A DNA stretch of 64,000 bases, taken from Candidatus Campbellbacteria bacterium (lineage in GTDB: Bacteria > Patescibacteriota > Minisyncoccia > Phycocordibacterales > EsbW-18). The position numbers were made by a program, and so were the translations under genes. Shown here one piece after another: positions 1,212-58,030 of the stretch (positions within the stretch are counted from its first letter, which is position 1; each line of letters opens with the position of its first letter). The notes beneath the pieces were generated by a model. It was not told where the DNA came from. It worked only from the letters and a program-made list of their open reading frames with translations, and made no database searches. The stretch covers positions 478,503 to 542,502 of the forward strand of contig CP064977.1 of NCBI GenBank assembly GCA_016699465.1, written 5' to 3'.

Positions 1212-1817
1212 CTACTTGCGATATCGAAGGACCCACTCGTCGTCGAGGTTGAGCTCTTTGCTCGGGCTGTACCAGGAGTCGACGTGCCCGAGCCCGTCCC
1301 CGACGAGCTCGACGATGTGCACGAACGAAGCGCCCATCGAGATAATAATGCTCTTCGTCGCGACTCGAATCGACTCGCCCTTGGGCTGATCGTCGTAGGC
1401 CAGACGAAGTGCCGAACCGACTTCGGTCGGACAAGGCTCTAATCCGAGCTTCAGGATACGCACGATGAACATGTCGAAGCGTGGCGACTTGGTAAAGCCG
1501 ACACTCCGCGGAGTAACCCTTACGAGGTGGATGTCCTCCGCTCCATCATAGACACTCCGATCAGCAACACCGAGTGCATCGAGGTATCCCTTCACACCTA
1601 AGTGGTCGCCGATCCGGATGGTCTTCCAGACGGTAAAAACCTTCACCGCCTTCACCCCACACAGTTCACCGCGGTTGAACTTCTTGAGCTCCTCTATGAC
1701 GCGCACTCCTTCGGAGCCCGCAAGTTTCTCCGCGAGAGTCATGAGCGTGCCGAGGTACTCCTTCGGGACTCTCATGATCCATTCGATGAGACGGCCGAGC
1801 ATGTCATGATACGACAC
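1212..1817 (-). CDS. Hypothetical protein, GC-rich, compositionally atypical
   Basis: A 201 aa ORF with a GTG start preceded by AAAAGGAG at 6 nt spacing. Local GC is clearly above that of its neighbours. Confidence 0.5.
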   Translation of the reverse strand: MSYHDMLGRLIEWIMRVPKEYLGTLMTLAEKLAGSEGVRVIEELKKFNRGELCGVKAVKVFTVWKTIRIGDHLGVKGYLDALGVADRSVYDGAEDIHLVRVTPRSVGFTKSPRFDMFIVRILKLGLEPCPTEVGSALRLAYDDQPKGESIRVATKSIIISMGASFVHIVELVGDGLGHVDSWYSPSKELNLDDEWVLRYRK

Positions 1818-4603: not shown

Positions 4604-4642
4604 AGCCCCGTTCCGCACGAATGCGGAACGGGGCTTTGTATT
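4604..4642. terminator. Bidirectional intrinsic terminator
   Basis: AGCCCCGTTCCGCA-cgaa-TGCGGAACGGGGCT is a 14 bp perfect stem followed by TTTGTATT. It lies between convergent genes. Confidence 0.6.
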
Positions 4643-4683
4643 CAACAGGTCTGGAATCTCGAAGGCAGGTCACCCAGAACCAC

Positions 4684-4968
4684 CTAAGGTTCCTTGGACA
4701 ACTCCCTGTTCGGCGAACCCCCATCGGAAAAAATGGGAGACCTCTCCGGAACCTCGACGCCGCAAATGGTATCGAGAACACTCTCGCCTGTCACCGGCTG
4801 CTCAACCTTCCGAAGCAGTCCCGGCGCATCGGCAAGAAGGACGCCGAGCTCCTCGCGACTCAGGCGGACAGTTCCACCATTGTCGTCCGCGATCACGAAG
4901 AAGCCTTCGTCATACGCGAGTGTCGGACAACAATCCGACGAATGACACAGGGTAATCGCGAATTTCAT
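4684..4968 (-). CDS. Hypothetical small protein, GC-rich, with a strong RBS
   Basis: A 94 aa ORF starting MKFAITL, preceded by AGAAAGGGGGTGGA before the ATG. GC is high and the gene is not conserved-looking. Confidence 0.45.
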   Translation of the reverse strand: MKFAITLCHSSDCCPTLAYDEGFFVIADDNGGTVRLSREELGVLLADAPGLLRKVEQPVTGESVLDTICGVEVPERSPIFSDGGSPNRELSKEP

Positions 4969-5177
4969 TCCACCCCCTTTCTGCACACCGCACTGGTGTG
5001 CGCTGTTGTATACGACTCTTCTGTTGCGGAGAATACCTGAAAAATAAAATCCTGTCAAAGCGAAAGGCCCCGAAGGGCCTTGAAACGGACATCTTCACGG
5101 GGCATAGCATGCTCCTTTCGTCGTACTCCACACCTGCCCTTCTTCCATAAAAGATACTACGCTCTCCTTTTTGTAAG

Positions 5178-6311: not shown

Positions 6312-7073
6312 CTACAGTTCTAACGCGGCAAGCATATCCGCAACATTACGTGCAACAAGACTTGCTCGCCCAACAAGAACACCTTGTACCGTTCCCTCAT
6401 GAACAATACGTGCAATATTATGTGGCTCAACTGAACCGCCATACAAAATGGGAACCGTCATCCCAGTCGCACGACCATACATGCGTGAAAGTATTTTTCG
6501 TATAAACAGTGTTGATTCATGCACATCACTTGGATTCATGGCATACAATGAAGCCTTACCAATTGCCCATACTGGCTCGTACGCAATAATCACTTTTGCT
6601 ATTTTTGCCTTTGAAATACCTTTCAAGGATTCTCGGAGTTGCTCTTCAATAACGGCAAGATGCTCTCCATGTTCTCCGCGCTCATGTTCTCCAACGCACA
6701 CAATAGGCGTCAGTCCCGCAGCAAGTACTTCACGCGTCTTATGAGCAACCTGTGTGGGTGTCTCACCACCCGCGCGTCGTTCTGAATGCCCTACAATGAC
6801 GTATCGCACACCAACACTCTTCAGCATTGCCGTTGAAACTTCTCCTGTGTGTGCCCCATCAGAAAAAACAGAAACATCTTGTGCTCCAAGAAAAACAAAA
6901 CCGTCACTTTTATTCGAGCAACTCACACAAAACGGTGTTGGTGGACAGACAACAACACTTGTCTTTTTTATTTTTCGAGCATATTTTTTTGTTGCACTCC
7001 ATAGTGCAACTGCCTCACGCGCTGACGAAGGATTCATCTTCCAATTTGCTACAAAAAGTAATTTCATAGGCAC
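6312..7073 (-). CDS. tpiA: Triosephosphate isomerase
   Basis: FVANWKMN, the catalytic region VIVGHSERR and the AYEPVWAIG motifs are present. Confidence 0.95.
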   Translation of the reverse strand: MPMKLLFVANWKMNPSSAREAVALWSATKKYARKIKKTSVVVCPPTPFCVSCSNKSDGFVFLGAQDVSVFSDGAHTGEVSTAMLKSVGVRYVIVGHSERRAGGETPTQVAHKTREVLAAGLTPIVCVGEHERGEHGEHLAVIEEQLRESLKGISKAKIAKVIIAYEPVWAIGKASLYAMNPSDVHESTLFIRKILSRMYGRATGMTVPILYGGSVEPHNIARIVHEGTVQGVLVGRASLVARNVADMLAALEL

Positions 7074-7097
7074 TTATTGTACCACGAAGCCCACATC

Positions 7098-8498
7098 CTA
7101 CTCGATTTCCTCCCACGAAATAGTCACATATTGGTCGGCCGTCAATGGGAACGATGGTGGTGGTGCATAGAGAAGGTTTGCATCATAAATATAATTACGA
7201 GTCGCATACCCGTCAGGGTCATACCAAAAGCCCGAACGTTGGTTTGTTCCCAACATACCATACGTGGTAAGAAGTGTACGCGCGTGGTTTGGAGAACACC
7301 CTGTAGAATAACTATATCTACCAATTCTCCCGTTTTGAGCAATAATCGCAGCATCTATACGCAAATCATCTTCACTTACCAAACCAACATTGAAGTCTCC
7401 TTGTGCAATCAAACCAATGACATCAGATCCATCATAGCGAGTATACCGAATATCATTGGTAACATTAATATTTTTTCTTGTTGACGGATTATCTGGAAAA
7501 CGAGCAGCGCCAATAGTTAAACGCGCGCCATCAATTGTTCCATTTATCCACACATGATCTTCAACAAAAATGAGACCATTCGTTGGAAATGCATAATTGG
7601 CGACAAAGGTTTCTCCACCACTCTTAATACTCAATGTTCCACACCCTGTCCCCGTACACGAACAACCATTCTTTGAGTACATGGTATTTACCTTATACAA
7701 ATCAAACGTGTCATTTGTCTTGAGAACAATGTGATATCCCAACACCCCCGATGCTGCAAAATATCGTCCCGCTGATTGCGCTGCACTTTTTATTAGAGAC
7801 AAATCAGAAACAATTCCCGTAAAATCAACTGCAGGTACCGGAAACTGTCGTCCCGCCTTAAATACATCTGAACGATTTGGAACCGCCGACGGAGGAAGTG
7901 GGTCTACAGGCGTACTGTGGGTATGTACCCCAAACTCTTTTGCTCCCGTATGATCAGGGTCATCAAACGTCGACGTCGCACTCGTTACTAAGTTGTACGC
8001 GACACCGTCAAAACGAAGTCCTGTGTTTGAATGAATCGGGCCGTACACATTTGCCGTTGATCCAAAGTTTACAAAGCTATTCAGCACCCACGCGTACTTT
8101 GCAAATGATGGAATTGCAAAAAGAACTTCAACAGTTCGAGAAATTGTTGGTTCTGCAAGTGTAGACCCTGTCGAGCGCACCCGCACAATCGTCGAACCAA
8201 CTGTCGGCGGTGTAATGGTAAGTGAAAAATGCCCAATAACATCACCTTCTTTGTTACGAAATTCGTGTATGTACGGTCCTGATGTTGCCGTTCCGTCTCG
8301 ATAATCAGTAGGCGCATGTGCTAAATGCCAACGATAATAATCAATACCAGCTTCCGCAATATGAAAAGAAAGTTCTCGAGACGTTGCCGTTCGCAATACA
8401 CGCGCATTTGTTCCAGCCCACGAAACAAGTCCTGTGAGCATTACAATACCAAGAGACGCAAGAACCAAAACAGTCACCAGCATTTCTCCTTTTGACAT
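7098..8498 (-). CDS. Secreted or membrane-anchored protein in the pilus cluster, possibly a pilus-associated adhesin or minor pilin
   Basis: A large protein with an N-terminal TM/signal segment (MSKGEMLVTVLVLASLGIV). It sits in an operon with the prepilin genes. There is no clear GFxxxE prepilin motif, so the role is inferred from context. Confidence 0.45.
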   Translation of the reverse strand: MSKGEMLVTVLVLASLGIVMLTGLVSWAGTNARVLRTATSRELSFHIAEAGIDYYRWHLAHAPTDYRDGTATSGPYIHEFRNKEGDVIGHFSLTITPPTVGSTIVRVRSTGSTLAEPTISRTVEVLFAIPSFAKYAWVLNSFVNFGSTANVYGPIHSNTGLRFDGVAYNLVTSATSTFDDPDHTGAKEFGVHTHSTPVDPLPPSAVPNRSDVFKAGRQFPVPAVDFTGIVSDLSLIKSAAQSAGRYFAASGVLGYHIVLKTNDTFDLYKVNTMYSKNGCSCTGTGCGTLSIKSGGETFVANYAFPTNGLIFVEDHVWINGTIDGARLTIGAARFPDNPSTRKNINVTNDIRYTRYDGSDVIGLIAQGDFNVGLVSEDDLRIDAAIIAQNGRIGRYSYSTGCSPNHARTLLTTYGMLGTNQRSGFWYDPDGYATRNYIYDANLLYAPPPSFPLTADQYVTISWEEIE

Positions 8499-25292: not shown

Positions 25293-25841
25293 ATGCAAAA
25301 ACAGTTAATACTCTTCTGTGGTCTGCCTGGAAGTGGAAAGACTACAATCTCGAGGGAGCTTTGTAGAATCACAGGGGGAAAACTCATCGATCTAGACGAG
25401 TTCAAGAAAACGGACGTGGACCCACTACTCGTGAAAAGCGAGATAGATCCGCCGGAGGTTCGATGGACCTACTACCAGAAGGGTCTGCGTGCGGCTCTTG
25501 CATTGTTTGCCACCGGCACACACACCATCATCATTGATGAAGTATTTCATCTGGCGGAACTACGGCGGAAGATAGCCAACTTCTGTCGCGAACAACACAT
25601 CACAATCACTTGGGTTGAAGTACGCTGCCCGTACGATGTTGTTGCACAGCGGTTGTCATCCAAGCCTCGTATCGGGCACATCCTGTCGACCGAAGAAGCA
25701 CTCGCGATGAATCGTCTGTTTGAAAACATCTTCGAACCATTTCCAACGCTCAGCGACGGACATATAGTGGTTGAGAACACAGGGTCTGGGAGGATTGAAG
25801 AAGTAGTTGTTTGTATCTTGGAAAAGATGCATCGGGGGTAA
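25293..25841 (+). CDS. P-loop NTPase / AAA-domain kinase-like protein
   Basis: Walker A GLPGSGKTT and a DEVF Walker B-like segment. Confidence 0.6.
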   Translation: MQKQLILFCGLPGSGKTTISRELCRITGGKLIDLDEFKKTDVDPLLVKSEIDPPEVRWTYYQKGLRAALALFATGTHTIIIDEVFHLAELRRKIANFCREQHITITWVEVRCPYDVVAQRLSSKPRIGHILSTEEALAMNRLFENIFEPFPTLSDGHIVVENTGSGRIEEVVVCILEKMHRG

Positions 25842-30388: not shown

Positions 30389-30478
30389 GTGAGGGCAGTA
30401 TAAACCAAAGTTGTCATATAGAAAAGAGAATGGCACCCCCGCTTGCGCAGGAGTGCCATCGCACCGTGGGCGACGCCG

Positions 30479-30718
30479 TTAGAAGACGTTGCGGAGGCTC
30501 CACGAAGCGTTGTCGGCGCAGTCCAGACGAATGCCGACAGTAAAGGGGGTACCGGGACTGAGTCCCCTCTTGTTCCACTTCGCCTGGATAATCGGAGAGA
30601 GGTCATAGAAGACCATCCCACCGTGCTCCCTGCGGTCGATCACGACGCAGACGGCTTCGGTCCCAACCTCCTCGAAGATGGCCCAATCACCCCGTATGAA
30701 TCCGATTCCAACTTTCAT
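30479..30718 (-). CDS. Hypothetical small protein, GC-rich micro-gene
   Basis: 79 aa. CAGAAAGGAGCTGTAC precedes the ATG. GC is high. Confidence 0.4.
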   Translation of the reverse strand: MKVGIGFIRGDWAIFEEVGTEAVCVVIDRREHGGMVFYDLSPIIQAKWNKRGLSPGTPFTVGIRLDCADNASWSLRNVF

Positions 30719-30938
30719 GTACAGCTCCTTTCTGAACGGTTGGGTGGGTCGCGTTGTTTGCTACTCTGGGGTCATATTGCTCCAAAAAACATCTGTGGTC
30801 AACCACGTTAGAGAATCAGATTTTATCTGCCACAAAAGTGTATATCTTGAGATTAAATTATAAAAACATAACTATTTTGCAAAAACACACCATCTCTAAC
30901 GTGGTCAATGACTTCCCTAGCGAACGAAAAACAGCGGC

Positions 30939-31471: not shown

Positions 31472-31924
31472 CTACTGAGGAGAAACCCACTCCACAGACA
31501 GTTCCTTCTCGCCCACCTGAAACGAGATGAGTGTCGAGTGAGGATGTGGACCAATGCCCGTCTCGAAGATCTTGATCCCCTCTATGGTCGCAACTTCATG
31601 AACGTAGCGCCAAAAGCCTGGCCCGCCGATATGCGGCGAAAACATACCCGCCGCCTCGTCTAGAATCCTACAGACAAGTTTCTGCTCAGGTTCCATCGGT
31701 ATCTTCTCCTTTTTTTGGTTACCCGCATGAGACACCGCGTAGAGATACGCTTCCTCGAATGCGTCACCCTTTGGAGTCCGGTTTTTGTACCCGAGCTCCT
31801 TAGCCCGCTCACGAAGTGAAAGTCCGAGCGCGCCGGCAATAGCACCATTGAGCGCAGCATTCCAAATGCGAATATTTTCTGGATCTGCATCAAGCCACTC
31901 GAGTACTTGATCCGGAAGCGGCAT
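31472..31924 (-). CDS. Hypothetical protein, GC-rich, with a strong RBS
   Basis: 150 aa. TTAAGGAGGTCGTTT precedes the ATG. Confidence 0.45.
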   Translation of the reverse strand: MPLPDQVLEWLDADPENIRIWNAALNGAIAGALGLSLRERAKELGYKNRTPKGDAFEEAYLYAVSHAGNQKKEKIPMEPEQKLVCRILDEAAGMFSPHIGGPGFWRYVHEVATIEGIKIFETGIGPHPHSTLISFQVGEKELSVEWVSPQ

Positions 31925-32057: not shown

Positions 32058-32192
32058 TCACTTGCCGCGCTGGAGAAAGTTGCCCTTGACCCAGGGCTTG
32101 ACCACAGTTTCGCCCGCGCACCTCATGAACACCCAGAGCGCAATGATGAGAAGAACGACAACTAACGCGAGACCGGCGATTACCCATTTCAC
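32058..32192 (-). CDS. Possible 44 aa membrane micro-protein (GTG start)
   Basis: AGGGAGAAACCTAAA precedes a GTG start. The product is VKWVIAGLALVVVLLIIALWVFMRC.... GC-rich, and below the ORF-track length cutoff. Confidence 0.3.
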   Translation of the reverse strand: MKWVIAGLALVVVLLIIALWVFMRCAGETVVKPWVKGNFLQRGK

Positions 32193-32278
32193 TTTAGGTT
32201 TCTCCCTTGTGGTTGGTCCGCGAAATTGCAACTACCAACGAGAATATTAAAGTAATACTTTGTATTTATCAATACCTC

Positions 32279-40449: not shown

Positions 40450-40491
40450 ACGATTCACAAGAAGTGCCCTTCGGCACTTCTTGTGAATCGT
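40450..40491. repeat. Perfect 19 bp stem hairpin with a CTTC loop immediately 3' of tRNA-Ser
   Basis: ACGATTCACAAGAAGTGCC-cttc-GGCACTTCTTGTGAATCGT. No U tract follows. Confidence 0.7.
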
Positions 40492-40502
40492 CTACTAGGG
40501 CG

Positions 40503-40518
40503 AGGTGAGATTCGAACG
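40503..40518. repeat. Inverted copy of the tRNA-Ser T-arm/acceptor segment (GAGGTGAGATTCGAAC)
   Basis: It is the exact reverse complement of GTTCGAATCTCACCTC from the tRNA-Ser gene. Confidence 0.65.
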
Positions 40519-40617
40519 ACGGAGCGATATTTTGTCAGTAGACAAAATCGCGAGTCGGTGCCCAGACAAATTTTTTTGACGACAAAATTTAGTCGCGGGA
40601 GAAAAACGTACTCGTGG

Positions 40618-40633
40618 TCTCACCTCCTCCGCA
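40618..40633 (+). repeat. Direct 16 nt copy of the tRNA-Ser 3' end (TCTCACCTCCTCCGCA), a candidate att-site scar
   Basis: It is identical to the last 16 nt of tRNA-Ser, 171 bp downstream. An intrinsic terminator follows at 40648-40668. Confidence 0.65.
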
Positions 40634-40765
40634 CCTGATGCAAAAATGCCCCGCAAGGGGTATTTTTTGTGTCAGGAGGACGAGATTCGAAAGTCGGACC
40701 GAGCAAAGCGAGGGAGACGGGGTCGAGAACACTTAGGATTTTTGATTCCAATGGAAGCAAAAATA

Positions 40766-40802
40766 CTTAGTGATTCGTGACCGAATCTCACCCCTACCGC
40801 CA
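40766..40802 (+). repeat. Degenerate second copy of the tRNA-Ser 3' end with a conserved CTTAGTGATTC arm
   Basis: CTTAGTGATTCGTGACCGAATCTCACCCCTACCGCCA. A homologous unit follows tRNA-Val at 33746-33775 (CTTAGTGATTCATAACCGAATCCCCCAC). Confidence 0.5.
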
Positions 40803-40807
40803 AAATT

Positions 40808-41125
40808 ATGAAGTGGCTCATACCCATCAGTATCCTCGTATTGTTTGAACTCATTGCAGATGTTCTTGCAAAAAACTGGTCCCTACGAGGAGGTTGGCTA
40901 CTTGCCGGAGGAGCGCTAATCGCATATTTTCTTGCAAACACCTTTTGGCTTTTTGCCCTTCAGAACGGCGCCGGTCTTGCTCGGGGTGCCGTAATTTTTT
41001 CTGTAGCTTCTGCCATTCTTGCCGTCGCACTCGGACTTTTTGTATATCACGAACCACTTACGTACTACGAGATAGCCGGCGTCCTGCTTGGTCTCCTTGC
41101 CATAACCCTCATTTTTTGGAAATGA
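40808..41125 (+). CDS. Small 4-TM transporter of the DMT/SMR superfamily (EamA-like half)
   Basis: 105 aa with four hydrophobic helices. Confidence 0.55.
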   Translation: MKWLIPISILVLFELIADVLAKNWSLRGGWLLAGGALIAYFLANTFWLFALQNGAGLARGAVIFSVASAILAVALGLFVYHEPLTYYEIAGVLLGLLAITLIFWK

Positions 41126-41155
41126 GCTTATAATAAAAAGGCCTGAACACTTACC

Positions 41156-41731
41156 ATGCACGCTTTATTTTTTCAGTATCTTGAAACCTACCGCCTATTT
41201 GCGTACGCAGTTATTTTTATTGGTCTTCTTCTCGAGGGAGAAGTCACCCTCTTTCTTGCGGCGTTGTTGGTGCACCAAGGTTTTTTAAATTTATATGACA
41301 CCCTTGCTCTGACATTGCTTGGGGTTTTTCTCGGGGATCTTCTGTGGTTTACCTTGGGAGAGCACCTCTCGTTATATAAAAAAATCAGTGCATGGGTTGA
41401 AAGAGAGGCGGGACGATTTGATCACATCTTCCAAGCACACACATTCAAATCACTTTTGGTTACGCGTTTTTTGTACGGGCTCAGTCGACCAACACTCATT
41501 CGTATGGGCATGCTTCGCATCCCAATTAAAAAATTTCTTGAAGCAAATATAGTCACAACGCTCGTATGGTCCTCTCTTGTGTGGATTATTGCCTACGCAT
41601 TGAGCGCCTCTATCCTTTCAACACGACATTTCATACCACGCCTCGAAGCAGGTATTGCGCTCATCATTATTGCCATCATTGTTCTCAACAAACTCGCCCG
41701 ACGGTTTATTGAAAAAGGACTTCTTGAATAA
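41156..41731 (+). CDS. DedA-family (SNARE-associated / TVP38) membrane protein
   Basis: YAVIFIGLLLEGEVTLFLAALLV DedA signature. Confidence 0.8.
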   Translation: MHALFFQYLETYRLFAYAVIFIGLLLEGEVTLFLAALLVHQGFLNLYDTLALTLLGVFLGDLLWFTLGEHLSLYKKISAWVEREAGRFDHIFQAHTFKSLLVTRFLYGLSRPTLIRMGMLRIPIKKFLEANIVTTLVWSSLVWIIAYALSASILSTRHFIPRLEAGIALIIIAIIVLNKLARRFIEKGLLE

Positions 41732-41742
41732 GAAGCGACCGC

Positions 41743-42069
41743 TCATTTCTGAGCGGCCTTGCGCGCCTTCTGCTTGGCGAGCCACGTACGTGCCTGAGCC
41801 TTGGGGAGCTCGGATCCGGCGAACACCTTTCGCGGATTGAAAGGGGTTGGGAGACTGGTTCCACGCTGTCTCCAGACATCGAAGTGAAGATGGATGTTCT
41901 CTGCCGAACCCATGGCGGTCTCGAGAACCCCCCACACACAGCGGTAGAGGTTCCTTCTCTTCCCGTCCGAGCACTTCACTTCGTAACACAGATCCTCGTC
42001 GGCGGTCACCCTCCCGATCACTTCCGAAGTGTGTCCGGGCTTCGCTCTGATGTACCACACAGTACTCAT
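41743..42069 (-). CDS. Hypothetical basic protein, GC-rich micro-gene
   Basis: 108 aa. GAAAGGAGGAAGGAC precedes the ATG. Lys/Arg-rich C-terminus. Confidence 0.45.
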   Translation of the reverse strand: MSTVWYIRAKPGHTSEVIGRVTADEDLCYEVKCSDGKRRNLYRCVWGVLETAMGSAENIHLHFDVWRQRGTSLPTPFNPRKVFAGSELPKAQARTWLAKQKARKAAQK

Positions 42070-42476: not shown

Positions 42477-43049
42477 ATGATTTCACAGCTCACAGGAACT
42501 ATCAGCTATACAGAACCTGGACTCATTATTCTACAGGTTGGCGGTGTCGGATACGCAGTAAATATAGCGAAAGATACGGGTGCAGGGCTCCATACAAGCG
42601 ATACACTCACCCTCTGGACACACTTAGCGGTCCGAGAAACGTCTATGGAACTTTTTGGATTCACCACCAAAGATGAACTTTCTCTTTTTGAAATGCTTTT
42701 AGCGGTTCCTGGAATTGGCCCTCGGTCAGCACTCGCTGTGCTTTCTCTTGCAAGTGCCGATACACTTAGAAAAGCAATCTCTGAAGAAAATATCACATAT
42801 CTTACGAAAGTCTCCGGGATTGGAAAGAAAACCGCAGAGCGCATTGTTATTACACTCAAAGATAAACTTGGAAGTAAGGGTGAACTTAGTGGAGAACTTA
42901 AAGAAGACGCTGATGTTGTTGAAGTACTTGTCTCACTTGGATATTCACAAACAGAGGCGCGAGATACCGTCAAAAAAATTGACCCAACAAAAAACGGCAC
43001 CAACGAACGCACCAAAGAAGCATTGAAAATTCTTGGATCCCGATTGTAG
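42477..43049 (+). CDS. ruvA: Holliday junction DNA helicase RuvA
   Basis: MISQLTGTI...VPGIGPRSALAVL HhH motifs and the C-terminal domain III. Confidence 0.9.
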   Translation: MISQLTGTISYTEPGLIILQVGGVGYAVNIAKDTGAGLHTSDTLTLWTHLAVRETSMELFGFTTKDELSLFEMLLAVPGIGPRSALAVLSLASADTLRKAISEENITYLTKVSGIGKKTAERIVITLKDKLGSKGELSGELKEDADVVEVLVSLGYSQTEARDTVKKIDPTKNGTNERTKEALKILGSRL

Positions 43050-43528: not shown

Positions 43529-44401
43529 TTACCAGCTTCCAGATGAACCTCCCCCACCAGAACTTCCTCCACCAAATCCTCCGAAGCCCCCTCCACTACT
43601 CCCACCACTTCCAGAACCGCCAATCCACCACGGAATAGTAGAACCTGTTGCTTTATGTTGTGTGTATTTTTTTGATACAAGAAAATCAAACAGGAGACCG
43701 AACGGTACTAAGAGTACGAAGGCGATGAGACCTGCAAACATAAAACCAAAGAAAAGCCAGATAATGCTTGCGATAACCCCGCCGATGATTCCACCCGCCC
43801 ACCACGACTTTGAGCGCGCGAGAACACTCGCAATATACACAAGGATAAAATAAAAAAAGAAAGACAAATCAACTGAAAACCCACCATTTGTTTCAGGGGA
43901 AGCTTCAGGTAGTGCCTCTCCTCCGGAAAGTGCTCCTATAATTGCATCCACCGCACCGTTAATACCACCAGCATAGTCGCCGTTCTTGAATGCAGGCGTC
44001 ATCACGTCATTAATAATCCAAGAACTTTGCGCATCGGTAATGTCTCCCTCAAGCCCATACCCAACCTCAATCCGCATTTTTCGTTCTGTTGGTGCAACAA
44101 GAATAAGGAGTCCGTTGTCTTTTCCCTTCTTTCCGATTCCCCACTCAGCAAAAAGTTCTACAGCATAGTTTTCAATAGTATCTTCTCCAAGTGAGGAAAT
44201 GGTAACAACCGCAATTTCATTTGTTGTTGCTTTTTGGAATGCATCGAGTTTTGTTTCGAGTTCCGTCTTTTGATCCACGGTAAGAATCCCTGCAAAATCA
44301 TTTACAAATCCTGACGGAGCGCCTGGACTTGTATATGCATACGCACATATAGCGCTCGTTAGAAACAAGACACTAAAACAAAATGAGGCAAATCGACGCA
44401 T
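43529..44401 (-). CDS. TPM-domain protein (TLP18.3/Psb32/MOLO-1 family) with a Gly/Ser-rich C-terminal tail
   Basis: Signal peptide, the GFVNDFAGILTVDQKTELETKLDAFQKATTNEIAVVTI TPM motif, a TM region and a GS-rich tail. Confidence 0.7.
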   Translation of the reverse strand: MRRFASFCFSVLFLTSAICAYAYTSPGAPSGFVNDFAGILTVDQKTELETKLDAFQKATTNEIAVVTISSLGEDTIENYAVELFAEWGIGKKGKDNGLLILVAPTERKMRIEVGYGLEGDITDAQSSWIINDVMTPAFKNGDYAGGINGAVDAIIGALSGGEALPEASPETNGGFSVDLSFFFYFILVYIASVLARSKSWWAGGIIGGVIASIIWLFFGFMFAGLIAFVLLVPFGLLFDFLVSKKYTQHKATGSTIPWWIGGSGSGGSSGGGFGGFGGGSSGGGGSSGSW

Positions 44402-45054: not shown

Positions 45055-46374
45055 TTGGGTATGCTCAATACAATACTTCGTTTCATTAAGCAATTCATCC
45101 CTTCTCAGCTCTTCCAGAAGCTTCAACCTACGTACCACTACCTTCTCTCACTTGTAGGGGCTGTTATATATCGATTTCCTTCACGCCACATACACGTCGT
45201 GGGCATTACCGGCACGAAAGGTAAATCATCAACCGCAGAACTTGTAAACGCGGTTCTCGAAGCAAGCGGACACAAAACCGCCGTACTCGGCACCATTCGA
45301 TTTAAAATTGCCGACACCGAAACACGCAACCTCTACAAAATGACCATGCCCGGACGATTCTTTGTTCAAAAATTTCTCCGAGATGCCGTCAACGCACAGT
45401 GTGATTGGGCAATTATAGAAATGACCAGTGAGGGCGCAAAACAATTTCGCCAAAAGTGGATCGACATGGACGCTCTCATTTTTACCAATCTTGCACCAGA
45501 ACACCTTGAATCACACGGTTCATTTGAAAAATATAAAGACGCAAAACTTTCTATTGCGCGCCAACTTGCACGGTCACACAAAAAAAATACTGCGATTATC
45601 GCTAATGCAGACGACCTTGAGGGGCACCTCTTTTTGGAATGTGGTGCTGACCGCGCAATTCCGTTTCGACTTACTGACGCAAAACCATACACCCAAACAA
45701 CCAGCGGATACGAGTTTGGGTTCGAGGGCACGCGTATTCACCTTTCTATACCAGGACTTTTTAATGTATACAATGCACTCGCAGCTGCCGCATTTGCGCG
45801 TAGTCAAAACATTCTAGCTCGACACATCAAAGAAGGACTCGAGCACGTAACGCGCATTCCCGGACGTGCAGAATTTATTCGCGAAGGTCAAGCGTTTGAT
45901 GTTGTCGTCGATTACGCCCACACACCTGATTCACTCAAGAGTGTGTACGAAGCATTTTCTCTTGCACGAGTTATTGGCGTTCTTGGAAACACCGGTGGTG
46001 GACGTGATACATGGAAACGTCCCGAGATGGCACGTATAGCCGAACGTTCCTGTGAACATATCATTCTCACCAATGAAGATCCGTATGACGAGGATCCTGA
46101 AAAAATTCTTGAAGAAATGTCGGCAGGTATTCAAGACAAAACAAAACTCTCTATAATTCTTGATAGACGACAGGCGCTCCGCGAGGCACTCAACATGGCT
46201 CAAACAATGTCATCTGCAAACACCCGCCAACGCGTTGTTGTTCTTATTACCGGAAAAGGCACCGACCCATTTATTATGGGACCAAACGGAAGTAAGCAGG
46301 CTTGGGACGATGCCACAGTTGTCCGCGAAGAATTACAAAACTCACTAAACCAACCACCAAACTCCAACCCCTAA
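45055..46374 (+). CDS. Mur ligase family protein (MurE/MurF-like UDP-N-acetylmuramoyl-peptide ligase)
   Basis: VVGITGTKGKSST P-loop and Mur ligase middle and C-terminal domains. The C-terminal 11 codons are encoded by a low-complexity repeat inserted before a duplicated, displaced original 3' end. Confidence 0.75.
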   Translation: MGMLNTILRFIKQFIPSQLFQKLQPTYHYLLSLVGAVIYRFPSRHIHVVGITGTKGKSSTAELVNAVLEASGHKTAVLGTIRFKIADTETRNLYKMTMPGRFFVQKFLRDAVNAQCDWAIIEMTSEGAKQFRQKWIDMDALIFTNLAPEHLESHGSFEKYKDAKLSIARQLARSHKKNTAIIANADDLEGHLFLECGADRAIPFRLTDAKPYTQTTSGYEFGFEGTRIHLSIPGLFNVYNALAAAAFARSQNILARHIKEGLEHVTRIPGRAEFIREGQAFDVVVDYAHTPDSLKSVYEAFSLARVIGVLGNTGGGRDTWKRPEMARIAERSCEHIILTNEDPYDEDPEKILEEMSAGIQDKTKLSIILDRRQALREALNMAQTMSSANTRQRVVVLITGKGTDPFIMGPNGSKQAWDDATVVREELQNSLNQPPNSNP

Positions 46375-46639
46375 CCCTATTACTTTGGGATGATGCCACT
46401 ATTGTGAGAGAGGAACTGAAGAATATGCTGAAATAGGCATATTAAAAAATCCGAATATCGAAACCCGAAACAATATCAAATAGCCAAACCAAAACTAATC
46501 ACTAACTCCCAACTTCCAACCTCCAACCCTCCATTATTTATGAATCCCGTTAGAGATTCTTCGATTATGCGTTCCACTTCTTTTTTGGGTAAAAAGAGCT
46601 ACTATACATGTATTATTTCAATAGCAATGAAAACACGTT

Positions 46640-47629
46640 GTGTTTTCTATCTCTAACGGGATGAACGACTTCATTAAATTTATTTTCTTCATCGTCGCGG
46701 CAATCTTTTTTGTTTCCTATGTTCAAGACAGTGGCCCTCTCCTTGGAAACCCTGGATCATTTAGTCTTCTCGGCGGCACAAATCAAGGTCCTGCAGCATA
46801 CACACGATCATACGATAGCAATAATGACGGCACTATTAGCGACGCCGAATACAAACAAGGTGAACTCGATCGCATTGCGCAAGAACTCTTAAGTATTTCA
46901 CAAGCCACACAAAAAGCACTCGACGAAAAAAATCGTTCACCTTATTACGGCATGGTGAATCTTGAGTACGGCAACACCTATACCGACAGTTCGCGCGAAG
47001 AATACGTCGTTGTCGCAGCATCGAGCAACAACCCAGCGCCTATTGTTATTTCTGGATGGAAACTTGAAAGTATCATTTCAGGAACACGTGTTTCAATTCC
47101 ACAAGGTGTTGCCCTTCTTGAGGGTGCCTATCCACAGCGACACGAACAAAATGTATTTCTTGCGCCAGGAGAGCGCGCCATCATCAACTCACGATACGCC
47201 GTTGGTATCAACACAGGATTTTTGGAAAATAAATGCACGGGCTACATTGATCCGAGATACACCATTTCACCACCACTTACCCGCTCATGCCCCTCTCTTA
47301 AAAACGAGAATCTTTCCACTTTTGGTATTACGCCGAGTGCCTTTCACAATACCGATGCGTACGACACATGTATGGACGGAATAGAAAGCGCTCGCTCATG
47401 TGAACGTGGATCATACGCAAGTACAACACCAAGTATCTGTAAAGCATTCATAAAAAAATATTCCACATACGACGGATGTCTCGAACTCCATAAAACAGAT
47501 AGTGATTTTTTTGGAGACACGTGGCGTTTGTTCTTAGGATCAAATAAAGACGTGTGGAGAAATGAGCGCGAAGCAATTGCCCTCATCGATGACTCCGGAA
47601 AAGTGGTAGACATACTCAAACTCTACTAA
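46640..47629 (+). CDS. Secreted lamin-tail-domain (LTD) protein
   Basis: N-terminal TM/signal segment. The EYVVVAASSNNPAPIVISGWKLES...SGTRVSIPQGVALLEG region is LTD-like. The probable start is at MNDFIKF (46661). Confidence 0.55.
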   Translation: MFSISNGMNDFIKFIFFIVAAIFFVSYVQDSGPLLGNPGSFSLLGGTNQGPAAYTRSYDSNNDGTISDAEYKQGELDRIAQELLSISQATQKALDEKNRSPYYGMVNLEYGNTYTDSSREEYVVVAASSNNPAPIVISGWKLESIISGTRVSIPQGVALLEGAYPQRHEQNVFLAPGERAIINSRYAVGINTGFLENKCTGYIDPRYTISPPLTRSCPSLKNENLSTFGITPSAFHNTDAYDTCMDGIESARSCERGSYASTTPSICKAFIKKYSTYDGCLELHKTDSDFFGDTWRLFLGSNKDVWRNEREAIALIDDSGKVVDILKLY

Positions 47630-47713
47630 TCTTCCCCCAAAAGCTATCTACTGACAAAACTATATTTGCGTGGTATCGTGCCACCAGACACACCCAAACA
47701 ACAGGAGGGGCTC

Positions 47714-48112
47714 ATGCCCACCACGTCTGAAAAGTGCTTTGATGGACAGTTTATCGGAGAAATCCGCAGTGGAAGTTCGCTACTGATAACTGTCAATAGG
47801 AACCCGGCCTTTTACGGTGTGATCAAGAGTGTCACTCCGGGGACGCGGGTCACAGGACTACCCTCTCATGCGACCTTTGAATTTTTCTGGGGAGCACGCA
47901 TGGGAAACGGAACCAACTCTGAATCATGGCGATCGGTTGGTAAGATCGTTCGCCAAAAAGCGATCCGCTTTGAACTCCCGATGAAGCACGGGAGGAGTCA
48001 TCTCGGGGCATACGTTATAATCGAGGACGGAAACACTACATATACAGTGTTCCTTGGCTACAGCCACCTCAACCCACGAGACGTGCTTGGGCTCCCCGAA
48101 TGGTTCATGTAG
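47714..48112 (+). CDS. Hypothetical protein, GC-rich micro-gene
   Basis: 133 aa. ACAGGAGGGGCTC precedes the ATG. A terminator follows at 48128-48158. Confidence 0.45.
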   Translation: MPTTSEKCFDGQFIGEIRSGSSLLITVNRNPAFYGVIKSVTPGTRVTGLPSHATFEFFWGARMGNGTNSESWRSVGKIVRQKAIRFELPMKHGRSHLGAYVIIEDGNTTYTVFLGYSHLNPRDVLGLPEWFM

Positions 48113-48159
48113 GACGCAGCATTGCACAAGAAGAGGGTCCGCCCTCTTCTTTTCTATTA

Positions 48160-48188
48160 TTGACAAGAGCGCCACTTTCAAGTATTAA
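48160..48188 (+). promoter_or_regulatory. Sigma70-type promoter TTGACA-17-TATTAA
   Basis: Near-consensus hexamers with 17 nt spacing, 40 nt upstream of the 48228 ORF. Confidence 0.45.
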
Positions 48189-48227
48189 TGACGTCGGACG
48201 TGCAACAAACCAACCAAAGGAGGCACC

Positions 48228-48506
48228 ATGAAAATCGAAGCGCTCAAGGGACTGCCACTGAAACTCAAACTGGTTTCCTACGAAGTTCTGACGGACATGC
48301 TTGAGGGAGAGGTCGCCACCCTCAAAGCAAATCTGGAAGAGGCCCACAGAGAGCTGGTTCGACTCAAAGAAGCCAGCAATAACTCTGAGTCAGCCCTCAA
48401 GATGCAACACGACACGGCACTGGAGCAAGCCCGAACGGCAGAGGCGCGACTCGAAGAATCGCGTCGGTCGTTTGACACACTCATCGGCAAGATGTTCTCA
48501 GAATGA
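48228..48506 (+). CDS. Hypothetical coiled-coil protein, GC-rich micro-gene
   Basis: 92 aa with a heptad-rich sequence. CAAAGGAGGCACC precedes the ATG. A terminator follows at 48513-48545. Confidence 0.5.
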   Translation: MKIEALKGLPLKLKLVSYEVLTDMLEGEVATLKANLEEAHRELVRLKEASNNSESALKMQHDTALEQARTAEARLEESRRSFDTLIGKMFSE

Positions 48507-48512
48507 CATCCC

Positions 48513-48545
48513 AGGCCGCCCCACAAAGGCGGCCTTTTCTTTATA
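48513..48545 (+). terminator. Intrinsic terminator
   Basis: AGGCCGCC-ccacaaa-GGCGGCCT followed by TTTCTTTAT. Confidence 0.6.
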
Positions 48546-48619
48546 AAAATTGACGATGGAAAAATAACGTTCTACATGATACGCTCGTTCCAGATGCACT
48601 ATCACCAAAAGGAGTTCGT

Positions 48620-48877
48620 ATGAAAATACCACGTGTCTCTTTGGAAAATGGTGACTTAGGGAGAATCATGACTGCCGAAGAAATCCTAGCGCTCCAGACA
48701 GATCTTCCCGCCCTCCACCTCAACGAAGGAGGTAACCGGCCACCGAGGGGAGAAGGCTACGCCGATCTACGCTTGAGGTTAAAGCCTCACAACCAACTCG
48801 TTCCTCCACCTGCCCTGACGCCGGAAGAGGAGGTTGCGCTGGAGAAGCAGATCGGCGAACTCTTCGGAGGCGAATAG
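48620..48877 (+). CDS. Hypothetical protein, GC-rich micro-gene
   Basis: 85 aa. CAAAAGGAGTTCGT precedes the ATG. The CGGCCCGC-acgcaac-GCGGGCCG terminator lies at 48902-48932. Confidence 0.5.
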   Translation: MKIPRVSLENGDLGRIMTAEEILALQTDLPALHLNEGGNRPPRGEGYADLRLRLKPHNQLVPPPALTPEEEVALEKQIGELFGGE

Positions 48878-48989
48878 AAAGATTCGTCCAACAAGCCACA
48901 AGCGGCCCGCACGCAACGCGGGCCGTATTCTTACCTGACAAAAAATAAGCACCGCACACGATACTCACGATCGTAAGTATCGTGGACAG

Positions 48990-49445
48990 TTACCGAAACA
49001 AAATAATTCCCACGGCTACCGATACATTGAGTGATTCCTTTTTTCCTTTCATTGGAATTTCAATCACTTCGTCACATTCTGCAAGAACGTCATGGGATAC
49101 TCCGCCAACCTCATTACCAAACACAAACGCAACAGGCCCTTGTACCGATATATCGGTACAAGGTTTTGAACGCGGGTCTTGCTCAACGGCAATAACCCGC
49201 ACACCGTCTTTTGTAAGTTTTTGTATGACGTCATTTGTTTCCTCGGCATATTCCCACGCTACACAATCTTGCGCACCAAGAGCAACTTTTGCTAGGTCTT
49301 TTCGATTGCGCCCGAAACGGTCAACGGGTGTTGGTGTCACGCCACACAGATACAACTTTGAAACACCCGCAGCGTCACACGTACGAAAAATAGATCCCAC
49401 ATTGTGCACGCTTCGGATGTTATCGAGAATGACGTACGTATTCAT
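48990..49445 (-). CDS. TrmH/SpoU-family tRNA/rRNA 2'-O-methyltransferase
   Basis: SpoU motifs NVGSIFRTCDAAG and VAFVFGNEVGGVS...IPMKG...SLNVSVAVGI. It contains the 20-26 bp perfect palindrome at 49135-49166 in frame (KPCTDISVQG). Confidence 0.8.
   Translation of the reverse strand: MNTYVILDNIRSVHNVGSIFRTCDAAGVSKLYLCGVTPTPVDRFGRNRKDLAKVALGAQDCVAWEYAEETNDVIQKLTKDGVRVIAVEQDPRSKPCTDISVQGPVAFVFGNEVGGVSHDVLAECDEVIEIPMKGKKESLNVSVAVGIILFR
49141..49160. promoter_or_regulatory. Third copy of the palindrome TGTACCGATATATCGGTACA, extended to 26 bp (CCTTGTACC...GGTACAAGG), inside the trmH CDS
   Basis: An exact match to the operator-like sites at 3639-3666 and 4081-4100. Confidence 0.45.
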
Positions 49446-49574
49446 GTAGCGTGTAGCATACAACACGAAACACAAAACATGTAGGATGTAGCAAAAAACA
49501 TGCGGCAATAAAACATATCCTACTATTGATACAGAAACCGTTCCCTAATTAATGACAGTGATCTACCGCATAGC

Positions 49575-49603
49575 TTGACTATTTATATTATATCTTATAT
49601 AAT
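49575..49603 (+). promoter_or_regulatory. Consensus sigma70 promoter TTGACT-17-TATAAT
   Basis: A perfect -10 and a 5 of 6 -35 with 17 nt spacing, 30 nt upstream of the 49633 ORF. Confidence 0.5.
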
Positions 49604-49632
49604 GTAAAATAGAAAACAACAAAGGGGGTCCT

Positions 49633-49863
49633 ATGGACCATAGAATTACCGCCGACGATGGACAGGGTGGCGTCACTCACGTCATCATGTCGCGAGAACT
49701 GCTTTCCAAGATGGTTGGAAACGCCATTCTTGAATCTGTTCTTGCGTCAATGCAGATCGAGGGTGAAGAATTTCCCCCAGGAGTTCACGTCGAACTCCAA
49801 GAACCCGTCATCCTGCCGGAAGCGCTACTGAACACCGACAAGTCAGCTCCGCGGAAGCGTTAG
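49633..49863 (+). CDS. Hypothetical protein, GC-rich micro-gene
   Basis: 76 aa. ACAAAGGGGGTCCT precedes the ATG. A hairpin terminator with a T tract lies at about 49880-49915. Confidence 0.5.
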   Translation: MDHRITADDGQGGVTHVIMSRELLSKMVGNAILESVLASMQIEGEEFPPGVHVELQEPVILPEALLNTDKSAPRKR

Positions 49864-50005
49864 CAACACCGCGGTTCACGTATTATCCACCCCGTCACTC
49901 GAAAGTGTGATGGGGTGTTATCTTTTTACCCAAACAGTAAAAAACGTTTGTCTGAAAACGCATTTTGTTGTACAGTGTCTCTGTTTCCACTAGTAATAGA
50001 TATAT

Positions 50006-50082
50006 CCGCCCGTAGCTCAGCCTGGTAGAGCACCTCCCTTTTAAGGAGTGGGTCGTTGGTCCGAATCCAACCGGGCGGACCA
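50006..50082 (+). tRNA. tRNA-Lys (TTT), CCA encoded
   Basis: Cloverleaf built by hand. Anticodon loop CTTTTAA. Followed by the bidirectional terminator AAAAACAGCAC-acag-GTGCTGTTTTT. Confidence 0.85.
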
Positions 50083-50111
50083 TTCGTAAAAACAGCACAC
50101 AGGTGCTGTTT

Positions 50112-50816
50112 TTACAAAGCTAAAATCCATTTCTCCAGAGCAATTTCAAGTGGGGGGCCGTCACGTCGTGCCTCGTGGTAGAGTGTCACAAGTTCGTGTG
50201 TAAGCTTATGCAATTCTTCGTGAGAAAAACGAGTAAGCGCACTTCGTGCCTTGGTAATTGAAAATGATTTCATTCCTTCAGTGTCCCCCATTTCCACAAG
50301 AGCAAGTGTTTTGAATTGCCACCATATAATTCCGTGAATTTCTTCAGAGGCCTTGCCTTCACGAAATGCCTGCTGTAATAGCACCCACGCATTTTTTTTA
50401 TCACGACGCGCACATGCATCTGCTATAGCAAATGCATTAAACTTTTTTTCTTCTTCTTTTGGCACATCAAATACCTGTACTTTTGTTGCGTGCTCCTCAA
50501 GTGCTTTGCGAAGTGGTGTAGAAAGTTTTTCCTCGAGAATAACAAATATGTGCTCAGATTCTGCGAGTGCTTGCGCTAGTTTTACAACAGCGTCGCTAAA
50601 CGCCTCGATGCCGAGAGCAAACTCTACAATGACAATATATTTTTCTTCAAAAAGCCCTTTACTTTCTACAAGCTCCCGGAGGCGATCTGGTGTTGCTCCT
50701 TCATCCACAAGCCGAAACACCTGCGCGTGTGGGCGCTTAAGAGCAAGAGCGCTGAGAATCTCATGCGACCTCTCTCTCACTTTTTTTCTATCTGTTCCGT
50801 GAAGGACGTATAACAT
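50112..50816 (-). CDS. holA: DNA polymerase III delta subunit-like (HolA-like, short form)
   Basis: MLYVLHGTD N-terminus and the clamp-loader delta architecture. This is a weak, length-atypical call. Confidence 0.45.
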   Translation of the reverse strand: MLYVLHGTDRKKVRERSHEILSALALKRPHAQVFRLVDEGATPDRLRELVESKGLFEEKYIVIVEFALGIEAFSDAVVKLAQALAESEHIFVILEEKLSTPLRKALEEHATKVQVFDVPKEEEKKFNAFAIADACARRDKKNAWVLLQQAFREGKASEEIHGIIWWQFKTLALVEMGDTEGMKSFSITKARSALTRFSHEELHKLTHELVTLYHEARRDGPPLEIALEKWILAL

Positions 50817-57400: not shown

Positions 57401-57633
57401 CAGTGTGGGCGAGGTTAAATCTCGCCGCTACAGTTATCCACCGTAGAGATTGACCTAAAGAAACATCGCCTTTATCATAACCAATGGAAGTTCTTTGGGG
57501 AATGCCATCCTTAATTCCTAGGGGGATATGAAGCGTGCGCGAACGCAAGTTTGCGGTCATTGACCTGTTCGATGACACACAGGAAACACGCGGAAGCTGT
57601 CCCATGCGCCCGACGGACCAAAGGATTTCCACC

Positions 57634-57660
57634 AGCCGGACCACGTCCGGCTTTTTCTTA
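57634..57660 (+). terminator. Intrinsic terminator
   Basis: AGCCGGAC-cac-GTCCGGCT followed by TTTTCTTATC. Confidence 0.6.
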
Positions 57661-57674
57661 TCTAGCGATAACTA

Positions 57675-57703
57675 TTGACATACTCAAAAAAGTTAAGTAT
57701 TAT
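57675..57703 (+). promoter_or_regulatory. Consensus sigma70 promoter TTGACA-17-TATTAT
   Basis: A perfect -35 and a 5 of 6 -10 with 17 nt spacing, about 95 nt upstream of the 57800 ORF. Confidence 0.5.
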
Positions 57704-57799
57704 CCTACCAGAAGCTCTTCAGTGGACGCAATCTGTTTCTGTCATCACCCCTCGCGTCGTTCTAGTCAAAATGCAGGTCTACCGAGCAAGGAGCCCGCC

Positions 57800-58030
57800 A
57801 TGACCGCACCACCCAGCGCATCTGCTTCCGTCAACCACGCAGTCAACTGCACACTCACCGTGCTCCGTGGCAACATGAACCCAATCGCCACTTCGAACGT
57901 TGTCATCACACTCACGATGTACATGCGCGACCGAACAATGACGCCGTCTGAACAGCAAGAAGCATGGGGTCTCCTCCTCGCCCGCGTCCAGGAGGAAGGA
58001 CGGGAATACGAGAAGCAGCTCCATCCGTAA
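57800..58030 (+). CDS. Hypothetical protein, GC-rich micro-gene
   Basis: 76 aa. GAGCAAGGAGCCCGCC precedes the ATG. The CCCCGCC...GGCGGGG terminator with T7 lies at 58053-58088. Confidence 0.5.
   Translation: MTAPPSASASVNHAVNCTLTVLRGNMNPIATSNVVITLTMYMRDRTMTPSEQQEAWGLLLARVQEEGREYEKQLHP

Follow-up and report, generated by a model that had tools for sequence, protein, structure and literature searches.

Between the genes for a lamin-tail-domain (LTD) protein and a SpoU/TrmH-family methyltransferase, the genome of a Candidatus Campbellbacteria bacterium (contig CP064977.1) carries three small open reading frames (ORFs), here called A, B and C, in tandem on the + strand between positions 47630 and 48940 of the 64,000-nucleotide stretch that was analysed (the window; contig positions 478,503 to 542,502). 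A fourth unit with the same build, D, lies across SpoU, between that gene and tRNA-Lys, and was overlooked in the initial annotation, which had been made from the sequence alone. The likely explanation, to which we assign a probability of roughly 0.6, is that orphan genes with independent transcription make up a flexible, moron-like islet here, at a hot spot of recombination. The word ‘moron-like’ suits the architecture and does not imply demonstrated membership.

The content of the same gap in other genomes was compared using SpoU as the anchor for the locus scan, with one genome per species, and the LTD homologue was then located in the returned loci. LTD and SpoU were convergent in 19 other genomes. 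In 10 of the 19 the two 3' ends were separated by only 1–25 bp, including in L003, the next-closest relative, whose LTD protein was 63% identical, and the empty junction is therefore the ancestral state. The gap in the other nine measured 110–1367 bp and held differing cargo. The window contains A-B-C, L001 (a close relative, Logan assembly) contains A only and L083 (a 741-bp ENA contig comprising the LTD end, A', a terminator and the SpoU end) contains A' only, whilst the GTDB genome L004 has C' only in the gap, without A or B, together with D' across SpoU. Unrelated Pfam-less orphans were present in L007 (one, of 155 aa) and L005 (two, of 118 and 117 aa). An IS200-like Y1 transposase (6523–7191; Pfam E = 8.7e-9) occupied the gap in L033, a distant Parcubacteria genome, so that genuine mobile elements, too, enter this junction. 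Comparison with L001 delimited two absent segments, one of 727 bp that runs from the ribosome-binding site (RBS) of B through the terminator hairpin T3 and includes both B and C (48216–48942), and one of ~446 bp with unit D (~49490–49945). Since the gap is filled differently in each genome, the ORFs are neither frameshifted fragments of one gene nor ubiquitous core genes, the two outcomes that the initial annotation had named as fatal to it, nor do they form an obligate system. Each unit behaves independently, and the modular insulation first proposed for the array is borne out by the gain or loss of units one by one among relatives and by their compositionally foreign third codon positions (below).

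Toxin/immunity and anti-defence loci had been named in the initial annotation, and this distribution also bears on the possibility of a toxin-antitoxin, toxin-immunity or anti-defence module with three jointly acting products. The genes are small, adjacent and on the same strand, one product is basic (A, pI 9.5) and two are acidic (B and C), and the locus is strain-variable, all of which would suit such a module. The three do not, however, co-occur across relatives, with A found alone in L001 and L083 and C' found without A or B in L004; the genes are uncoupled, being separated by spacers of 115 bp (A-B) and 113 bp (B-C) that each contain a terminator hairpin and a promoter-like site; no PADLOC, Pfam, NCBIfam or PDB-sequence match was obtained; and the neighbours of the array are housekeeping genes, with no defence genes among them. 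Because the units occur independently, A, B and C are not one system, and a joint module of this kind is extremely improbable.

Sequence divergence and base composition set the locus apart from its surroundings. The backbone was ~99% identical to L001, with 0–2 mismatches per 100 bp over most of 45.2–47.4 kb and 49.9–50.6 kb, whilst most aligned 100-bp bins between ~47.4 and 49.5 kb had 4–11 mismatches, with a peak of 26. Within the divergent haplotype block delimited by this mismatch profile (47400–49500) lie A, SpoU and the 727-bp indel with B and C, and the ~446-bp indel with D reaches into it at one end. On the simplest reading, whole-block versions would have been exchanged by homologous recombination in the conserved flanks. 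GC content at third codon positions (GC3) was 0.57 in A, 0.60 in B, 0.57 in C and 0.56 in D, compared with 0.369±0.049 (maximum 0.49) in 23 long genes of the window, and cargo genes also exceeded flanking genes in GC3 in L001, L005 and L007. Relatives such as L004 and L007 have a GC content of ~53% at the locus; the composition of C would be native at that level, and this fits its import from a relative richer in GC.

Promoters and terminators in the locus are motif-level and folding calls. In each of A, B and C an RBS of Shine–Dalgarno (SD) type was read 5–6 nt 5' of the ATG, as had first been noted, and a stable GC-rich hairpin was located 15–25 nt 3' of the stop codon. The fold test gave stable hairpins 3' of all four stop codons, A–D, with stems of 8–10 bp and loops of 4–7 nt in this region, followed by T tracts. 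The terminator scan found eight terminator-like sites in 46000–50500 against 5.1±2.2 expected, so that there was no overall enrichment; the non-random aspect of the hairpins is their position 15–25 nt 3' of stops and not their number. Motif and folding signals for a separate promoter and terminator around a single ORF were positive for A, B and D, whilst C was weak in promoter and T tract alike. D resembles B and C in being acidic. No signal peptide or transmembrane (TM)-type hydrophobic segment was found in proteins A–D and no paralogues of them occurred within the window, and tRNA-Lys was the single match in an Rfam scan of 46400–50200.

The candidate promoter of A is CTGACA-17-TATCGT with a TG before the -10 element (47651–47679, + strand; 9/12 in the promoter scan), and a TGnTAyyGT motif was also present 5' of A in L001 and 5' of A' in L083. 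The RBS, AGGAGG (47703–47708, +), lies 5 nt before the ATG. From this RBS-proximal start gene A (47714–48112, +) encodes 132 aa, one fewer than the 133 first listed, and the lengths of 92 and 85 aa given at the same time for the next two of the three consecutive + strand ORFs stand; gene callers elsewhere give 144 aa for A from an upstream start. The product (pI 9.5) is an orphan and predicted to be all-beta. A in L001 shared 94% amino acid identity with it, with 23 synonymous vs eight non-synonymous changes and a ratio of non-synonymous to synonymous substitution rates (dN/dS) of 0.09, the off-frame controls giving 1.7 and 2.8. An exhaustive HMMER search with A through 1.84 billion representatives returned two relatives, P0001 (94%) and P0004 (50%); a third match was a spurious repeat protein and was not counted as a relative. 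The 155-aa cargo protein of L007 was considered as a distant homologue of A and rejected (hhalign probability 1.7%). AlphaFold2 (AF2) models of A were all-beta and had a predicted local distance difference test score (pLDDT) of 37 when the sequence was modelled by itself and 44 with an alignment of three sequences, both too poor for comparing folds. Gene A is followed by terminator T1 (48128–48158, +; hairpin 48128–48151), which has a 10-bp stem and a T tract, was called by the scan (-17.0 kcal/mol, z = -3.5) and is kept in L001. No hairpin was detected by the fold test between the upstream LTD gene and A.

Upstream of B the candidate promoter is TTGACA-17-TATTAA (48160–48188, +; -35 element at 48160–48165), which scored 10/12 and escaped the scan because its -10 element ends in a base other than T. 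The TTGAC(A/G)-17-N6 promoters initially assigned to the second and third ORFs thus differ in quality, that of B being good and that of C weak (8/12). The RBS of B, AAGGAGG (48216–48222, +), precedes an ORF of 92 aa (48228–48506, +) that would encode an acidic, helix-rich orphan protein, a call based on RBS, ORF and codon score. The single database match of B is itself, IPJ70_02970 of Candidatus Campbellbacteria bacterium on an 811-kb contig, found as identical copies only, and no diverged homologue exists. The annotated frame has the best codon score, and B shows GC contents of 0.64 and 0.35 at first and second codon positions (GC1 and GC2) and a periodicity of GC1 > GC3 > GC2. The coiled coil initially predicted for B is plausible from its composition, 64% of which is AELKMQR with one Pro; a heptad test, on the other hand, was no better than shuffles (859/2000), and database searches gave only weak matches to coiled-coil segments. 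Terminator T2 (48513–48544, +; hairpin 48513–48535) was called by the scan (-16.3 kcal/mol, z = -3.8). Over the 21 nt of its stem-loop (48514–48534) T2 differs by one base (C/T in the loop) from the terminator after A' in L083 (582–602), and the two also share some flanking bases and the T tract, amounting to 31 nt at 90% identity. The T2 sequence is unique in the window and elsewhere among the fetched loci was found, besides L083, only in L002, an identical copy of the window. The genes closed by this type of terminator are unrelated, being B in the window and A' in L083, which belongs to another species.

The promoter proposed for C, TTGACG-17-TACATG, may be less relevant than an extended -10 element of the form TGnTACGCT, TGATACGCT at 48577–48585, which appears to be the better promoter candidate and has a counterpart, TGGTATTCT, 5' of C' in L004; the candidate promoter region covering both was read as 48550–48585 (+). 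The RBS is AAAGGAG (48607–48613, +). Gene C (48620–48877, +) encodes an acidic orphan protein of 85 aa with a Pro-rich centre, and its homologue C' at the same site in L004 is 65% identical (dN/dS 0.24). The ATG at 48620 is favoured over a 78-aa call because the N-terminal IPRV is conserved in the L004 homologue. Hairpin T3 after C (48902–48926, +) has a 9-bp GC stem in the fold test, and the 68-nt stretch that contains it (48878–48945) folds at -20.7 kcal/mol (z = -3.0). Its tail is GTATTCTTACC, in which the weak tract reads GTATTCTT, and T3 was not called by the terminator scan because this tail fails the T-tract criterion; the related hairpin 3' of C' in L004 carries a full T tract. Of the hairpin with T tract described after each ORF in the initial annotation, all three hairpins are therefore stable and the T tracts of T1 and T2 are present, whilst that of T3 is poor.

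Unit D as a whole spans 49575–49917 (+), on the 5' side of tRNA-Lys. It comprises a promoter, TTGACT-17-TATAAT, that scored 11/12 in the promoter scan (49575–49603), an RBS (49622–49628), an ORF encoding an acidic protein of 76 aa (49633–49863) and a strong terminator identified by both scan and fold test (49888–49917), all on the + strand. D' occurs at the same site in L004 with 44% identity and a dN/dS of 0.35, and is accompanied there by a terminator and by the same TTGACT and TATAAT promoter elements despite diverged surrounding sequence. At the ends of the segment with D that is absent from L001 stands a direct repeat of 10 bp, imperfect in its two copies (AGCAAAAAAC/AGTAAAAAAC).

The dN/dS values of 0.09, 0.24 and 0.35 show that A, C and D truly code for proteins and are under purifying selection; off-frame controls of the dN/dS tests were >1. 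These values tell against the possibility that some of the ORFs, B above all, are non-functional, being either chance ORFs in a GC-rich insert or young de novo genes in a read-through region 3' of the LTD gene. That possibility draws on the failure to find any homologue of B other than itself among 5.8 billion clusters, on the orphan cargo genes in the gap being all co-oriented with the upstream LTD gene and on the low AF2 confidence for A, and GC-rich DNA in an AT-rich genome does give rise to chance ORFs, an estimated ~1% of 104-codon stretches at 53% GC being stop-free. B, however, has a consensus SD at ideal spacing, its best codon score in its own frame, the GC1 > GC3 > GC2 periodicity and a dedicated terminator, and we regard a non-functional origin as unlikely.

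Several points weigh against the reading of the locus as a flexible islet of independent units. The coding status of B would rest on its SD, its frame-specific codon bias and periodicity and the length of its ORF, which make it a candidate gene. C and D co-occur in the window and in L004 and are jointly absent elsewhere, which could indicate functional linkage or merely one shared haplotype block. Read-through A-B-C transcripts are possible because T3 is without a proper T tract and the -35/-10 pair of C is weak. Instead of a foreign origin, the high GC3 could reflect gene conversion biased towards GC where recombination is frequent. The direction of the gain and loss events is ambiguous, as L001 and L083 point opposite ways: L001 retains the promoter region of B, with the -35 element mutated to TTGATG, and the 5' leader up to the base before the RBS of B, a remnant that suggests a deletion in L001, whilst the T2-like terminator after A' in L083 hints that T1, the promoter of B and B itself were inserted between A and an older terminator.

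Proteins A–D are orphans. As the initial annotation had found by eye, there was no conserved domain: Pfam, PHROGs, NCBIfam and PADLOC were scanned with A–D and with cargo proteins from relatives, and none yielded a significant match to A–D, with 0 PADLOC families for A–D and likewise for the L005 and L007 cargo. Matches in the PDB, by sequence or by profile, were due to chance or to coiled-coil composition, and word-indexed searches of the 5.8 billion clusters with A, B and C returned only copies of 94–100% identity. No relatives of A, B, C or D were found in 2.9 M viral contigs, nor any in 50,697 phage records (searched at DNA level for the 1.3-kb region and at protein level for A, B and C), nor in plasmid records (DNA search only). 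Metagenome scans anchored on the LTD alignment and on the C alignment found none.

The initial annotation had placed the array in a mobile-element or phage context, and a related explanation would make the units morons, or what is left of a prophage or integrative element that has decayed to self-contained expression units. This would account for the promoter-ORF-terminator build and the atypical GC content as well as for the presence/absence polymorphism; furthermore, one of the two sites adjoins tRNA-Lys, and the IS200-like transposase of L033 sits in the same gap of a distant genome. The surroundings speak otherwise. The ORF list and Pfam revealed no phage or mobile-element genes flanking the array and no recombinase or mobility ORF within ±5 kb, nor any integrase, structural or replication genes over that distance, and there were no PHROG, viral-contig, phage-record or plasmid-record matches. 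The repeat search found nothing convincing in the way of att-like repeats or target duplications around A–C, the sole flanking repeat being the 10-bp one at D. D itself lies on the 5' side of the tRNA and not on the 3' side typical for integrases. Descent from a decayed element consequently appears improbable, and the islet at a recombination hot spot is preferred.

The left flank of the islet is a gene for a 322-aa membrane-anchored protein with a weak Pfam LTD hit (46661–47629, +). The protein begins with a TM helix, contains a DxNxDG motif that resembles a calcium loop and is rich in Cys towards its C-terminus; its gene is syntenic with SpoU across many Parcubacteria. The right flank is the SpoU/TrmH-family methyltransferase gene (48990–49445, - strand; Pfam PF00588, E = 1.7e-38), and the terminator hairpin of this convergent gene (48945–48988, -) was identified by scan and folding (-25.1 kcal/mol, z = -6.1). 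The wider neighbourhood contains a MurE-like ligase, the LTD-domain protein, SpoU, tRNA-Lys, holA and polA.

Other tracts of the window also differed from L001. Positions 43600–44100, in the gene for a TPM-domain protein (43529–44401, -), and 42477–42700 were 58–74% identical, the backbone otherwise being 95–100% identical; these patches suggest more recombination or hypervariable tracts such as the Gly/Ser-rich end of the TPM-domain protein. The region 40450–42010, which adjoins tRNA-Ser, has EamA-like and VTT-domain genes vs a Lipoprotein_15 gene and a 194-aa ORF at 2509–3660 of L001, and looks like a second variable locus.

Further small Pfam-less ORFs with a GC3 of 0.54–0.73, compared with a gene mean of 0.37, were present at 1212–1817 (-), 4621–5040 (+), 30443–30811 (+), 31472–31924 (-), 32062–32250 (+) and 57551–58030 (+). 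Very stable hairpins (-21 to -28 kcal/mol) were found 3' of two of these, 31472–31924 and 57551–58030, and 3' of an AAA_33 kinase-like gene (25293–25841). GC-rich orphan genes with strong terminators thus seem to be scattered through the genome.

A more far-reaching idea is that the units are mobile micro-cassettes of bacteria of the candidate phyla radiation (CPR), promoter-ORF-terminator modules that would move from genome to genome by recombination at terminator hairpins without a nearby recombinase gene. It was raised because the terminator GGCCGCCCCAYAAAGGCGGCC with its T tract closes both B and the unrelated A' of L083, and because the window has further orphan ORFs of this kind, GC-rich and with strong hairpins, at scattered positions. 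We consider it very unlikely; if it were true, the terminator hairpins would be cassette boundaries functionally analogous to attC sites.

For the flexible islet, the following sequence of events may be envisaged. The junction of the convergent LTD gene and SpoU would have become a landing site in this clade, with a second site across SpoU, adjoining tRNA-Lys. The cargo consists of small, lineage-restricted orphan genes, each with its own promoter-like site, SD and terminator hairpin, and with such expression signals the expression, gain or loss of one unit could leave the adjacent units unaffected. The genes may have come from relatives with a higher GC content or from a mobile pool not yet sampled, and homologous recombination in the conserved flanks would carry alternative versions of the islet through the population. 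The products would probably be small soluble cytoplasmic factors that act singly. As for their role, strain-level turnover together with purifying selection led us to guess at strain-specific conflict or interaction functions, for instance as single-acting modulators of interaction with phages or host cells that are kept variable by frequency-dependent selection; this guess is a doubtful one.

CPR (Patescibacteria) genomes are tiny and usually called streamlined, and about half of their genes are without known function. The locus is a clean, small example of a strain-variable accessory compartment in such a genome, made up of single orphan genes with their own predicted expression signals that are situated at a convergent-gene junction and swapped as haplotype blocks. 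A, C and D in addition represent three small protein families that are demonstrably under selection and can be tested for roles in phage or host interaction. No literature on this type of locus in Campbellbacteria was found.

Among known systems, the nearest likeness is to flexible islets and hot spots of horizontal gene transfer, said to have been described by Oliveira et al. in 2017 as chromosomal hot spots and by Rodriguez-Valera as ‘flexible genomic islands’. They have in common with the present locus constant flanking core genes, variable content, an empty site in relatives, cargo of different base composition and the exchange of versions by homologous recombination in the flanks; conserved flanks, variable content and an empty site were all observed here, as were a divergent block and atypical GC3. 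The islet described here differs in measuring only 0.1–1.4 kb, with one to three orphan genes of 76–155 aa, and in that no integrase or mobility gene accompanies it in the clade with A–D. To our knowledge, such hot spots have been little described in CPR genomes of ~0.8 Mb like that of this host.

Phage morons, reportedly introduced by Juhala et al. in 2000, are self-contained promoter-ORF-terminator units of deviant base composition between genes that are adjacent in relatives, a build that motifs and folding predict for the present units as well. The units at this locus are absent from otherwise collinear relatives and differ in composition, as morons do, but they are located in a cellular chromosome between housekeeping genes and not in a prophage between conserved phage genes, and no phage homologues were found. 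Type II toxin-antitoxin systems share with the array small adjacent genes of opposite charge in a variable locus, and differ from it in their translational or transcriptional coupling, co-occurrence and family homology, none of which was seen here.

Integron cassettes also consist of tandem short single-ORF units that end in an inverted repeat and vary unit by unit among strains. The hairpins at the present locus, in contrast, are short terminator-type stems (8–10 bp with a T tract) that differ from attC sites, and neither an IntI integrase nor attI is nearby. Cassettes, moreover, are usually without a promoter, and every unit here carries a promoter-like site. An integron was excluded on the basis of the terminator-type hairpins and the lack of a recombinase ORF within ±5 kb, the attC covariance model not having been applied. 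The locus does not define a new type of system; hot spots of accessory genes with orphan cargo are familiar, and what is unusual about this one is its host and its small scale.

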